From: a virus
Lineage: Duplodnaviria; Heunggongvirae; Uroviricota; Caudoviricetes
Direction: 5' to 3' (one strand)
Length of the DNA: 32,067 bases
Virus record (IMG/VR): IMGVR_UViG_3300001919_000084
Both the position numbers and the translations under genes were made by a program. Below the pieces are notes generated by a model, which worked only from the letters and a program-made list of their open reading frames with translations, ran no database searches and was not told the origin of the DNA. Each line of letters starts with the position of its first letter. Position 1 is the first letter of the stretch. This document shows, one piece after another, positions 1,175 through 14,397 of the stretch.

Positions 1175-1817
1175 AGAGCACCCCCTTATTTGCTTCGAAA
1201 ACTGCTTTTGCGAATCCATTCGGAGTAGCACTTCGAAAATTAGCCCTTTCAGGCCCAGGTGGCGCGGTATGGATTCTGTTATCTGGCTTGCCTAATGATT
1301 CGTCCATTAGGGCATCAGGCATGACAAAGCCCTGCCCGCTCCAGAGGCATGTTTTTTTGGTGTAATTGTCTTCCTTGCAATATGCAGTGAAGTGGTAAGG
1401 ATGGAAGATGTGATCAGGTTTACGCCAGAATGTCGATATTTGGCTGACCGGGTTTTCAATCATGTACGGGCAACCAATCATCTTTGCAATGTCGTAACAC
1501 TGCCAGACGACTTGCATCGCTTTGAACTGGAAAACCGGATCTTTGTCAGCCTTATGTGCAAACCAGCGCGCACCGGAAACAGCAAGGTCCGTGCACGGCG
1601 GAAAACCAGCTAAAAACACAATACGTTGTAAATTATTTCGGAGAAAAGCATAAACTTCATCACTATCGATAATCGCACTGATACGTGTCAGAACTGCGCC
1701 TGATTGCATCAGCTCATCTGTGGTCTTTGCGTGTTGTGGATCGACGATAACAGCATCTATACCATGCTCCAGCCAGGGGGCGACCATTTTCCCCGTGAAA
1801 TCACAAAGACTCACCAT
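1167..1817 (-). CDS. DNA methyltransferase-like protein with cytosine-5 MTase-type motifs
   Basis: ORF 1167-1946; chosen start is ATG at 1817, 14 nt after the rdgC stop (alternative ATG at 1787). Motifs resemble C5-MTase motif I (LCDFTGKM), motif IV (GFPPC) and ENV-like (MIENPV), but the protein is short (216 aa) and lacks an obvious target-recognition domain. Confidence 0.4.
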   Translation of the reverse strand: MVSLCDFTGKMVAPWLEHGIDAVIVDPQHAKTTDELMQSGAVLTRISAIIDSDEVYAFLRNNLQRIVFLAGFPPCTDLAVSGARWFAHKADKDPVFQFKAMQVVWQCYDIAKMIGCPYMIENPVSQISTFWRKPDHIFHPYHFTAYCKEDNYTKKTCLWSGQGFVMPDALMDESLGKPDNRIHTAPPGPERANFRSATPNGFAKAVFEANKGVLYE

Positions 1818-12099: not shown

Positions 12100-12384
12100 T
12101 TATGGTTGCTGTAAGTGGAGGGGAACAGCCTGTTCTATCATCTCGCGTATCAAGCCAACTTCAAGTAGTTCCTCGGATTCCCAGTATCTGTTTGTCACCA
12201 GATCCAGGCTGGCTATGACCTTGTGCCGGTCATTCGGCATAGCCAATTTTTCTGCTATAACCATCAGTGAAAACTCTTCATCCAGTAGAATTTGATACCA
12301 GTTTTTTGATAGTTCCACTTCCCTTATGAGACGGAAACGTCGCTGGATTGTGGCAGCAGAGTAAGTGAAATCTATTTTCTTCAT
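12100..12384 (-). CDS. hypothetical protein (94 aa)
   Basis: ORF downstream of the antirepressor-like gene, separated from it by a GC hairpin (gccccgg...ccggggc, about 12408-12428). Confidence 0.5.
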   Translation of the reverse strand: MKKIDFTYSAATIQRRFRLIREVELSKNWYQILLDEEFSLMVIAEKLAMPNDRHKVIASLDLVTNRYWESEELLEVGLIREMIEQAVPLHLQQP

Positions 12385-12443
12385 CGTGCGGAGAATCCGG
12401 TTATTTAGTAGTTAAAGCCCCGGACAGGCCGGGGCAACAGTAA

Positions 12444-13370
12444 TTAACTAACAATCCAGTCCGTAGCAACAACATCCTCTGGAGCTAAATCAATCGCATG
12501 GATTTTCCCATCCCGGATAGTGCGCCAGTGCTTTCGTGATCCACCTTCGGGCCATACCCATACACCTTCAGGCCAAGATGCTCGACGGCATACGATTGCA
12601 TACCCTGTTTTAATCCTCTCTCTGGCGGTATGCAACGACAGGTTTGCCTTTGGACTTTCAGGCACAGGATGGTGGATTGCCTGAAACATCCCCATCTTTG
12701 GATGATACCAGCGTTTATTGCGTGGTTCTGCCTCCGACATCACCTGCTTAAAGGCTTTCCGGAAGGGGGCCAGGGCCACAATGGAGCGTCTCGCAAGCAA
12801 ACCATCTGGAGTTAAAAACTCATGCGTATCGGTGGGAATCCGGTAAGCGTTGACAAGGTTGCGGCATTTGGCTTCAGTCAGGCCACATTTCGCCGCCAGC
12901 TGGCGGTAGCCAATGTAGCCTTCCGGCATATTGCCTTTCTTGATTTGCTCGACGGTTTCAGCGACTTTGGACACTTGTGCCGATACTTCGGCTACCTGGG
13001 CATTAACGGCGTTGATCCGGCGTTCATGCTCAAGATGCATTTGCGCCATTTCAGCCAGGATTTCGGCTTTTGATTTTAACTGTACCCGGGCATTCTCCAG
13101 TTCGCGCCAGCGGTCCACCAGCCGGGCGGTAAATTCGGGAGAGAGCTGTGCGACGACGACAATACTATCGCGCTTGCCTTGCTCGCCTTCGAAGACGTAA
13201 TAGCTCGCCGGGCGGCCTGCGGTGGGCTTTTCCTCAATTTGAGGAAAAGATATTACCCCCCGTTCCGCCAGGTGTTCAATGGTGCGTTTAACGTTATCAG
13301 GGCGCTTACCTACCAGTTCCGCGATCTCAATGCTGGTCATTGTCGCTTTTTGAGAGATGGACAGATTCAT
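12444..13370 (-). CDS. Rha/Ant-family phage antirepressor-like regulatory protein
   Basis: 308 aa; N-terminal MTSIEIAELVGKRPDNVKRTIEHLAERGVISFP resembles the Rha/Bro-N regulatory domain; ATG overlaps the stop of the upstream small gene (ATGA). Confidence 0.65.
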   Translation of the reverse strand: MNLSISQKATMTSIEIAELVGKRPDNVKRTIEHLAERGVISFPQIEEKPTAGRPASYYVFEGEQGKRDSIVVVAQLSPEFTARLVDRWRELENARVQLKSKAEILAEMAQMHLEHERRINAVNAQVAEVSAQVSKVAETVEQIKKGNMPEGYIGYRQLAAKCGLTEAKCRNLVNAYRIPTDTHEFLTPDGLLARRSIVALAPFRKAFKQVMSEAEPRNKRWYHPKMGMFQAIHHPVPESPKANLSLHTARERIKTGYAIVCRRASWPEGVWVWPEGGSRKHWRTIRDGKIHAIDLAPEDVVATDWIVS

Positions 13371-13585
13371 CAGTGCACCTCCACGCAGTTCATCGGCAGA
13401 TTCCAGTAATTGAGGATCTCCATCGCATCAAGAGTGAAGCGAGCAGCAAAAATGCAGGGTTCTTCGGGAAGGTATGAGCGCGCTTCTGCTTCGGTTGCAG
13501 CCATGACGCAGATATAGAGGTGTTTTTGGCAGGAATAGAAACGCCAGATAAATTCAGAATGAGTTGGGGTGGGGATAGTAGCCAT
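13370..13585 (-). CDS. small protein translationally coupled to the antirepressor gene (icd-like position)
   Basis: 71 aa; strong SD AAGGAGG 8 nt upstream of ATG at 13585; its stop overlaps the antirepressor ATG. Confidence 0.5.
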   Translation of the reverse strand: MATIPTPTHSEFIWRFYSCQKHLYICVMAATEAEARSYLPEEPCIFAARFTLDAMEILNYWNLPMNCVEVH

Positions 13586-13700
13586 ATTGGCAGCCTCCTT
13601 TGACTAAGTTAAGGAGCTACCGCGTGAGGTTCCAATCTCAATGGCGGTAGCACTGACTGGGTTGGAACTACCGGCGTCAAAGGGAACCGGCCTGCCTTTC
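13586..13700 (-). promoter_or_regulatory. structured 5' leader of the small-gene/antirepressor operon
   Basis: On the mRNA strand a CTCCTT segment lies 10 nt upstream of the AAGGAGG SD and can pair with it; further complementary pairs are gctaccgc/gcggtagc and ggttccaa/ttggaact. Confidence 0.3.
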
Positions 13701-13898
13701 GGCAGCCCAGCCAGCACTACCATTGATCTCTGAGCTAAACGCTACGTATGGCTGTGCGATGGCATGACACAAAAAAAGACGCTTTCGGCGTCTGTGTCGC
13801 CTTTGACATTATCCGGGGTTCCAATCCCGGCACCCGTTTTTCTAAGGTGCCGTAGAAATATACCCCACGATAATGCCAGGGCGCAACAGTCTGTATTT

Positions 13899-14066
13899 TT
13901 ATGCTTTGGTGGATTTCTTCCTGGCTTGCTTGCAGGCGTAGGCCATTGCTTTAGCCTTCACTTCATCCAGCTTCCCGGTGATCACTTCTTTTCCGAGAGT
14001 GACAAACCAGTCATAGCAACCGCCAGTGATGTTCTGGATTTGAAAGTTGAGGTAGCGAACGGTCAT
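13899..14066 (-). CDS. small protein (55 aa), candidate
   Basis: ATG at 14066 with GGGGGTG 5 nt upstream; MTVRYLNFQIQNITGGCYDWFVTLGKEVITGKLDEVKAKAMAYACKQARKKSTKA. Preferred over the overlapping plus-strand ORF 13764-14144. Confidence 0.3.
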   Translation of the reverse strand: MTVRYLNFQIQNITGGCYDWFVTLGKEVITGKLDEVKAKAMAYACKQARKKSTKA

Positions 14067-14397
14067 TTTGACACCCCCAGCGCGAGTAAAGAATGCAGAT
14101 TATCGCGTGAGTGGTGGACGACGAGTGATGGGGAAAGACTGTAGTTGTTCATAGTGTAGTGACTCCTTGCTTTCGGAGCCGCCATCGACTGTTCCACGGT
14201 CTGGTGGCGGCGCAATAAAGGCTGGAACACCGTGAGTCAACGGGGGCTTTTCAGCCACCTATATTGCACCGCCATAGGTATGGCGGCGGCAATAATACGA
14301 AAAACTAAATAGTTTGTCTCAAAAAGTTGACCGGTGTGCCAATCGGTAGTGAATGTACATCGGAGTGTTTTTCAATTCAACTTAAAATGTTAGAAAA

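Follow-up and report, generated by a model that had tools for sequence, protein, structure and literature searches.

How is the expression of a small open reading frame (ORF) of 71 codons, and of the putative antirepressor gene that follows it on the minus strand, controlled in virus record IMGVR_UViG_3300001919_000084, whose whole stretch of 32,067 nucleotides (nt) is called the window here? An original prediction pointed to an antirepressor operon behind a structured leader that hides the Shine-Dalgarno (SD) sequence of the small ORF, and likened the layout to the immI region of phage P1, where an antisense RNA acts over icd-ant. Our analysis indicates that the region is very probably an immI-type secondary immunity operon of a D6-like phage-plasmid, and that the likeness to P1 is one of true homology, since C4 and isrK RNAs above their gathering thresholds and an Icd homologue stand in the same layout. 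The 1.8-kb region shares 100% DNA identity with several D6-like Escherichia coli plasmids about 92 kb long, and 96% with phage D6. The extent first proposed, 12444-13700, cuts through the C4 gene (13727..13640) and leaves out both isrK (13850..13772) and a promoter-like site (13886..13857).

Two RNA genes precede the icd-like gene

A scan of the whole window against Rfam gave exactly two matches above gathering, C4 and isrK, both on the minus strand and directly upstream of the ORF of 71 amino acids (aa). With 77.1 bits for C4 (RF01695; gathering 45, E 1.2e-13) and 62.7 bits for isrK (RF01394; gathering 50, E 2.4e-11), the covariance-model search that had been named as a check of the prediction bore out the suspected C4-like RNA. 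The isrK match overlaps a weak one to c4-a1b1 (RF03163, 22.4 bits). The order a1, b1, c4, a2, b2, icd, ant is that of the annotated P1 locus, element for element. The elements are given below in the direction of transcription; all element coordinates in this text are window positions on the minus strand.

13857..13886, minus strand: promoter-like site read from the sequence, with -35 TTGCGC (13886..13881), an 18-nt spacer and -10 TATATT (13862..13857); start at about 13850
13772..13850, minus strand: isrK-type RNA (Rfam RF01394), the a1/b1 element of the C4 system, with two hairpins and an intrinsic terminator
13818..13824, minus strand: a1, UUGGAAC, in the loop of isrK hairpin 2, complement of C4 a'
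13800..13807, minus strand: b1, GUCAAAGG, in a single-stranded stretch of isrK, complement of C4 b'
13770..13793, minus strand: intrinsic terminator or attenuator of isrK from the terminator scan, stem AGACGC-CGAAA-GCGUCU (13793..13777) followed by U7
13640..13727, minus strand: C4 antisense RNA gene, full-length match to Rfam RF01695 (model positions 1-87 of 87)
13676..13683, minus strand: b', CCUUUGAC, in the loop of C4 hairpin 2
13662..13668, minus strand: a', GUUCCAA, in the single-stranded C4 junction
13629..13635, minus strand: a2 target, UUGGAAC, exact complement of a', 8 nt past the predicted C4 3' end and at the same position as the annotated a2 of P1
13597..13604, minus strand: b2 target, GUCAAAGG, exact complement of b', overlapping the icd SD (13600..13594)
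13370..13585, minus strand: icd-like gene, 71 aa, homologous to Icd, with SD AAGGAGG (13600..13594) 8 nt before its ATG
12444..13370, minus strand: Rha-type putative antirepressor gene (ant), 308 aa, Pfam Phage_pRha and PHROG 63

C4 consists of a long basal stem enclosing two hairpins. A mature RNA of 79 nt, at about 13721..13643, is predicted by homology to the 77-nt C4 of P1, whose annotated ends (c4 at 1353..1429, against an Rfam match at 1347..1432) were transferred. The b' : b2 duplex, of 8 bp, extends over the first four nt of the SD; that of a' and a2 has 7 bp, and both lengths are the same as in P1, in which b2 occupies the equivalent position and is annotated with 'repression of icd ant translation'. 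This contact between b' CCUUUGAC (13683..13676) and b2 GUCAAAGG (13604..13597), over the SD of the 71-aa ORF, is the decisive one and had been overlooked. The pair ggttccaa/ttggaact, which had been noticed, is indeed complementary (GTTCCAA 13668..13662 with TTGGAAC 13635..13629), but it is the antisense-target contact a' : a2 rather than part of an extended leader fold. Inverted exact 7-mers are enriched in the 285-nt leader 13586..13870, with 10 observed against 2.4 +/- 1.9 in 500 dinucleotide shuffles, of which 0.4% reach 10.

The helices of isrK are retained in alignment A3, which holds 21 distinct leaders aligned with MAFFT, with 89% of cells paired against 36-48% when the helices are slid. 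The promoter-like site aligns in A3 with the annotated P1 promoter P1c4/P51b, and its -35 TTGCGC is also found in RCS47-like loci; as a consensus promoter scan of the window did not list 13886..13857, we treat the promoter as putative. A hairpin and U-run equivalent to the isrK terminator are seen in P1 and Gifsy-1. Because this terminator precedes C4, icd and ant, transcription must read through it to reach them, and such read-through has been demonstrated experimentally for Gifsy-1 (PMC4825925). An origin of the structured region from tRNA or tmRNA was considered and dropped, as ARAGORN finds neither.

Three separate sites change together across 89 loci

The survey behind the following counts comprised 89 loci encoding an Icd relative, with the window, D6, P1 and P7 among them, and the sites were read relative to structural anchors; a search of genome contigs with Icd as a single protein had given no loci, and an alignment query 6. 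The 89 loci carry six a-alleles (UUGGAAC, UUGAGAC, UUGGUCU, UUGGCCU, UUGACAG and UUAGCAG) and six b-alleles (GUCAAAGG, GCAAAAGG, GUCUAAGG, GUUAGUG, GAUUGUG and ACUUACG) in 11 combinations. Pairing is fully Watson-Crick at a1/a'/a2 and at b1/b'/b2 in 62 loci, while in the RCS47-like loci (26/89) a1 matches a' exactly and G.U wobbles occur singly, at a' : a2 and in each of the b duplexes. Across all six alleles, exact complementarity of a1 to a' holds in 88 of the 89 loci, and b1 and b' likewise change together, as GCAAAAGG/CCUUUUGC in D6 and GUCUAAGG/CCUUGGAC in RCS47-like loci.

The window differs from D6 at both sites, with GGAAC versus GAGAC at a and GUCAAAGG versus GCAAAAGG at b. Both recombinant combinations of these alleles exist, so that all four combinations were found, and recombinants of the P1 and P7 alleles occur as well (loci L008 and L010). 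By analogy with the heteroimmunity of P1 and P7, the element should be heteroimmune to D6 at immI. The only locus with a discordant a1 (L043, IMG/VR UViG_2778261639_000014) has a1 UUGAGAC, which mismatches a' GUUCCAA, and a matching a2; its appearance is that of a recombinant carrying a non-cognate isrK, and it would offer a test, made by nature, of what a1 is for.

On A3, the C4 fold together with a' : a2 and b' : b2 has 93.1% of cells paired, against 30-49% when slid, and none of 500 column shuffles reaches the observed covariation score, a result to be read with the caveat that related sequences can beat column shuffles without any structure. The basal stem of C4 is paired in 99.4% of cells, with 8 of its 17 pairs changed on both sides, and four of the five pairs of hairpin 1 are changed in this way. 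For a1 : a' with b1 : b', 85.7% of cells are paired. In the alignment, an indel displaces five P1-type rows at a', b1 and the terminator, and all unpaired or gapped cells of the target helices trace to these rows, which are fully complementary when read by direct complement search. The concerted change of three separate sites across reassorted alleles is more telling than the shuffle score. The RNA genes, their structures, their complementarities and this three-site covariation are direct observations, and the perfect matching of all sets of pairing sites, together with the covariation of alleles throughout the population, argues for ongoing selection.

The icd-like gene and the Rha-type gene

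The 71-aa ORF and its AAGGAGG are as predicted (13585..13370, SD 13600..13594). Its product is 56% identical to Icd of P1 and 54% to that of P7, with 38 invariant columns, and matches the NCBIfam family phage_ICD_like at 49.4 bits (cutoff 25) and PHROG 1426 at 3.7e-41; in D6 and the identical plasmids, the ORF is annotated as 'host cell division inhibitor Icd-like protein'. A tblastn search found no second icd copy in the window. The ATGA overlap reported for the junction with ant proved to be a misreading, as the sequence is cacTGATGaat, in which the last base of the stop TGA (13372..13370) is also the first of the start ATG (13370..13368), giving UGAUG. An SD-like GGAGG of ant's own lies at 13382..13378, 7 nt upstream of the ant ATG.

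That the second gene is Rha/Ant-like agrees with its matches. The 308-aa protein reaches 29.9 bits for Pfam PF09669 Phage_pRha, exactly the cutoff of 29.9, over residues 11-93 (the N-terminal winged-helix domain), and 2.9e-65 for PHROG 63 'anti-repressor Ant' over residues 2-308, so that membership of the Rha family appears borderline in Pfam and strong in PHROGs. No NCBIfam family was matched, and a sequence search of the PDB gave nothing significant (best E 0.2). D6 and the identical plasmids annotate the large ORF as 'anti-repressor Ant' or 'Rha family transcriptional regulator', and over its full length the protein shares 88% identity with the 'anti-repressor Ant' of D6.

The differences from D6 Ant are concentrated in residues 12-60, and the two proteins are otherwise near-identical. 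Residues 12-57 (window about 13335..13200, minus strand), in the N-terminal winged-helix segment, are strongly divergent, a mosaic replacement that coincides with the change of C4 specificity. The last 65 residues (window 12444..12680, minus strand) are 40% identical (E 9e-19) to a separate small protein encoded after the Rha gene of the plasmid's second module. Sequence comparison thus presents the C-terminus as a gene fusion here (or a split in the second module), not a truncation, which probably explains why PGAP flags the Rha coding sequence of the identical plasmids as 'incomplete; missing C-terminus' (pseudogene).

Downstream of the ant stop, one further feature was read from the sequence, which the terminator scan did not call, its U-run being too short.

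12417..12435, minus strand: possible operon terminator, GC-rich hairpin GCCCCGG-CCUGU-CCGGGGC right after the ant stop, followed by only UUU

An alternative helix between C4 and its downstream sequence

The complementary pair gctaccgc/gcggtagc, which had been taken as part of one extended leader fold, is present (GCTACCGC 13651..13644 with GCGGTAGC 13623..13616). It forms an alternative helix between the 3' stem strand of C4 and the sequence past a2, not part of such a fold.

13616..13623, minus strand: 3' arm of the alternative helix, GCGGUAGC, pairing with the C4 3' stem strand GCUACCGC (13651..13644)

Formation of the helix would exclude the basal stem of C4 and would set a2 in a 20-nt loop. 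In D6-like, RCS47-like, L013-like and P1-like leaders 94.6% of its cells are paired, against 35-57% when slid, with four of eight pairs changed on both sides. The helix also occurs in Gifsy-1 (UCACCACC/GGUGGUGA) and in phage 2H10, and with G.U pairs in Stx1 and phiP27 phages.

Proposed mechanism

The following scheme draws on the work on P1 and Gifsy-1 for processing, translational block, coupling, decoy action and the target of the antirepressor. A promoter at about 13886..13857 would start an RNA at about 13850, and most transcripts would stop at the isrK terminator (13793..13770), giving a short isrK RNA that bears a1 and b1. The read-through RNA would contain C4, which, as in P1, might be cut out as an RNA of about 79 nt with RNase P acting at its 5' end. 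C4 would expose b' (CCUUUGAC) in a hairpin loop and a' (GUUCCAA) in the junction, for pairing with b2 (GUCAAAGG) and a2 (UUGGAAC) on the same or sister transcripts. Since b2 overlaps the icd SD, loading of the 30S subunit at icd would be blocked, and since ant starts on the icd stop codon (UGAUG), it would be silenced along with icd. In P1, silencing of ant is reinforced by Rho-dependent polarity. As a result, the prophage would stay repressed. The a1 and b1 copies on isrK may compete for the C4 loops, and isrK would thus most likely be a decoy that tunes or relieves repression.

The cassette would thereby decide whether a secondary antirepressor and a cell-division inhibitor are made, and through this control it would help to determine the dormancy of the phage-plasmid and its immunity to related phages. 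D6-like phage-plasmids are widespread in E. coli and Salmonella and often come from clinical and livestock isolates. For annotation, three points follow: the RNA genes are absent from most records, the coding sequence of a 39-aa 'ash family protein' overlies the C4 RNA, and the Rha-type gene is not a pseudogene.

Alternative explanations

The original prediction had the leader itself hide the SD, such that CUCCUU would fold onto it and keep icd-ant off, without any RNA acting in trans, until a signal melts the hairpin.

13611..13616, minus strand: CUCCUU, anti-SD segment 10 nt upstream of AAGGAG, with which it forms a hairpin

Both the segment and the hairpin are present (-6.2 kcal/mol predicted), and the folding of the leader that had been proposed as a check does find the SD mostly paired in the ensemble, with an unpaired probability of 0.00-0.12 for the SD core AAGGA in the processed leader. 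The SDs of RCS47-like and L013-like leaders are occluded as well (0.01-0.05), though by a different upstream segment. What did not hold up is occlusion beyond chance: the unpaired probability of GAGG in the SD is 0.25, against 0.19 +/- 0.11 with the upstream leader shuffled, and 84% of the shuffles are equally or more occluded, while for leaders other than that of the window the fraction of shuffles at or below the observed value is 0.04-0.37. CUCCUU is confined to D6-like leaders, its hairpin is missing in RCS47-like, L013-like and P1-like leaders and shows no informative covariation, and the actual changes in leader sequence track the C4 loops instead. We thus consider cis sequestration a very unlikely mechanism for this operon; the hairpin is at most an accessory, with the 5' half of b2 (GUCA) displayed in its loop. 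A different role for the leader is suggested by a 39-codon ORF (13723..13604, minus strand) that lies exactly atop the C4 RNA, starts at the AUG at the C4 5' end, ends 18 nt short of the icd ATG and corresponds in position to orf45 of Gifsy-1. As in Gifsy-1, isrK in trans could cause this ORF to be translated, with ribosomes crossing the anti-SD segment and stopping 18 nt before the icd ATG so that the icd SD is opened, and the RNA would then be mainly an mRNA switch and not a processed repressor. Expression of anrP in Gifsy-1 does need translation of orf45, and there is a more than 100-fold activation by IsrK in trans (PMC4825925). D6-like leaders keep the ORF open, with 39 aa; in RCS47-like ones it continues into icd in the same frame, in Gifsy-1 it overlaps the anrP start, and its translation matches Pfam Phage_ASH at 32.2 bits (cutoff 26), in line with the PGAP name 'ash family protein' in the identical plasmids. 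Against this, it has only 14 codons in P1 and 31 in P7, its amino acid changes (D/C, S/L, G/E) follow the RNA specificity alleles, a pattern expected of selection on the RNA, no convincing SD precedes its AUG, and that AUG sits within the 17-bp basal stem of C4. Conserved nucleotides with a variable protein sequence were noted by the Gifsy-1 authors too, according to the account given of them in PMC12197685. We regard this switch as very unlikely to be the main mode of control; it fits the C4 model as an added layer, not as its replacement. A genuine Ash protein as the primary reading of the 39-aa ORF was rejected, given that P1 and P7 have a broken version of the ORF and that its substitutions run with the RNA alleles. 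With an ORF of 14 codons in P1 and substitutions that track the RNA alleles, at least this block of the Ash family looks like a conserved RNA gene in translation.

Finally, the RNA cassette could be a remnant and the operon effectively constitutive or dead, as the PGAP flag 'incomplete; missing C-terminus' might suggest, but the 308-codon frame is intact and matches D6 Ant over its full length, its additional C-terminal 65 aa are a fusion and not a truncation, and all three sets of pairing sites are perfectly matched and covary in alleles across the population, which makes decay barely credible. An immI-type operon controlled by C4 remains by far the most probable explanation, and several observations weigh against it. 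We know the element from sequence alone, and the C4 processing sites are taken solely from homology to P1. In RNAcofold, mature C4 with the leader gave -0.5 kcal/mol and with isrK -1.4, against -1.2 +/- 1.0 for shuffles, hence no meaningful binding; we set this result aside because the program cannot represent loop-loop contacts inside folded RNAs. The duplexfold matrix of cognate and non-cognate pairs is noisy, its diagonal being lowest or tied lowest in most, not all, rows, and was taken as supportive only, as each loop was free to bind anywhere. The good SD of its own means that the dependence of ant on icd translation is not guaranteed. In addition, the effector is not a P1-type KilAC Ant, and only its name and position suggest that it is an antirepressor and that a D6-type C1 is its target. 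The P1 C1 operator consensus (up to 3 mismatches) has no match anywhere in the window, although this consensus is that of P1 and may not fit a D6-type C1.

Further C4 cassettes and their possible mobility

A second immI-type cassette is present on the same replicon, outside the window, at 12185..11001 of L091 (NZ_AP022217.1), beside the lytic replication gene. Its C4 (a' CUGUCAA, b' UCACUAAC) is identical to that of P1 over the 86 nt matched in Rfam, and a c4-a1b1 match reaches 54.4 bits. The cassette also has an icd-like gene, a Rha gene of 235 aa that shares 67% identity with that of the window, and a separate ORF of 65 aa. A single plasmid thus has two full C4 channels whose specificities are unrelated.

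Within the window, a degenerate C4-like RNA lies at 14279..14200 (minus strand), with 40.2 bits for RF01695, below the gathering threshold of 45 (E 6e-6 in a 1.2-kb search), preceded by a promoter-like GAGACA-17-TATTAT (14320..14292). Its a'-like UGUUCCA matches a downstream UGGAACA, and its loop UGACUC matches GAGUCA over the SD of a 29-codon ORF, the targets being at about 14194..14188 and 14163..14158. The stop of the 29-codon ORF overlaps (ATGA) the start of a 55-aa ORF (PHROG 7786), the two ORFs being at 14152..14063 and 14066..13899. D6-like loci conserve the module, even two with an identity of only 79%, in which one stem mismatch is repaired; the loops are invariant.

Conservation of the RNA cassette extends through the SD and the first 8 or so codons (window 13600..13560, minus strand: GGAGGCUGCCAnnAUGGCUACnnUCCC; MATIPT/MATVPT). 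The same stretch is common to D6-like icd and to the icd-less antirepressor genes of Stx1, phiP27 and 2H10 phages (L095-L097), which suggests a portable cassette with its junction inside the first ORF. Phage phiP27 has the same a-allele as the window (UUGGAAC) with a different b-allele.

Comparison with known systems

The immI operon of P1 and P7 consists of c4, icd and ant1/ant2, as credited to Citron & Schuster 1990 in the citing text of PMC8198154. C4 of P1 represses ant (PMC8198154) and is a substrate of RNase P, by which it is matured (PMC2190699); the reference list of PMC8546580 lends these points further support. The window shares with P1 and P7 the promoter, a1, b1, a terminator-like hairpin, C4, a2, b2 over the icd SD, icd and an overlapping ant, all in the same order, and its C4 scores 77 bits, against 69-70 bits for those of P1 and P7. 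Its specificity alleles differ from those of its relatives as those of P1 differ from P7, and its a and b specificities are unlike those of either phage. The clearest difference lies in the effector, which is of the Rha type and has no similarity to the KilAC-bearing Ant1 and Ant2: BLASTP against P1 Ant1 finds no homology (E 0.28), and Ant1 reaches 106.5 bits for Pfam ANT/KilAC, whereas the 308-aa protein matches Phage_pRha only. In addition, the junction is UGAUG here and AUGA in P1, the 5' element scores as isrK (62.7 bits) rather than as c4-a1b1 (22.4 bits), and the second P1 promoter, P51a, is not detectable in the window.

In Gifsy-1, the Rfam matches are isrK, then a C4 RNA (69 bits) at 'orf45/STnc1160', followed by anrP, so that the window shares with it a partly read-through isrK terminator ahead of a C4-family RNA and an antirepressor-type gene. 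Lysogens of Gifsy-1 show high transcription of IsrK and STnc1160 (10.1101/787010). In numbering that begins at the IsrK start, a1 spans U26-U32 and a' spans A158-A164. The published compensatory mutant pairs G28A/C162U and G31A/C159U (PMC4825925, Hershko-Shalev et al.) map, by our own mapping, exactly onto a1 : a' base pairs and are experimental proof of that Gifsy-1 contact, which has an exact counterpart in the window. Translation of anrP is activated when this pairing is broken or when IsrK is provided in trans (PMC4825925), and by analogy with P1 isrK of Gifsy-1 behaves as a competitor for the C4 loops. The two loci differ in that Gifsy-1 is without icd, with b2 directly before anrP and the C4-spanning ORF overlapping the anrP start, whereas in the window this ORF ends 18 nt before icd, which is interposed before ant. 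AnrP is unrelated to the 308-aa protein, and upstream of the window's cassette there are small ORFs and ref, and no antQ-type gene.

By its description, the CI RNA of P4 (seqA/seqB/seqC) is likewise an immunity RNA processed from the leader of its own operon and flanked on either side by complementary copies. It has been named a structural relative of IsrK and acts by premature termination of transcription (PMC4825925), while the overlap of b2 with the SD in the window points to a translational block instead. IsrK and c4 still stand as unrelated entries in a 2025 review (PMC12197685), and a study of APSE phages notes isrK and C4 RNAs side by side. We found no paper stating the equivalence of P1 c4 and Gifsy-1 IsrK in a literature search that did not extend to the early P1 papers of the Schuster laboratory. 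We tentatively put forward a joint reading, which may well not hold in full: (1) P1 c4 and Gifsy-1 IsrK would be one three-site RNA circuit, in which the short isrK is an allele-specific decoy that titrates C4 off a2 and b2; (2) the alternative helix would be a switch of the precursor between C4 maturation and target presentation; and (3) the a and b sites of D6-like elements would reassort freely, with one replicon carrying three orthogonal C4 channels (that of the window, the P1-identical one outside it and the degenerate one at 14279..14200), making up a combinatorial antisense immunity code.

The ImmI-like region of phage D6 (NC_050154) and of D6-like plasmid prophages belongs to the same replicon type; the window differs from D6 in C4 specificity at both sites and in the divergent N-terminal winged-helix-turn-helix segment of Ant. 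Homologues of c4, icd and the antirepressor (an ImmI-like region), together with a second c4-icd region, have been reported for the D6-like plasmid pYU39_89 (PMC6799933). The locus is therefore a real and well-supported regulatory RNA system of a known kind, already described in this phage group (PMC6799933). For specialists in phage RNA, the six-by-six table of reassorting alleles may be of interest, as may the placement of the IsrK mutations of Gifsy-1 on a1 : a', within a picture that stays the one known from P1 and its relatives.

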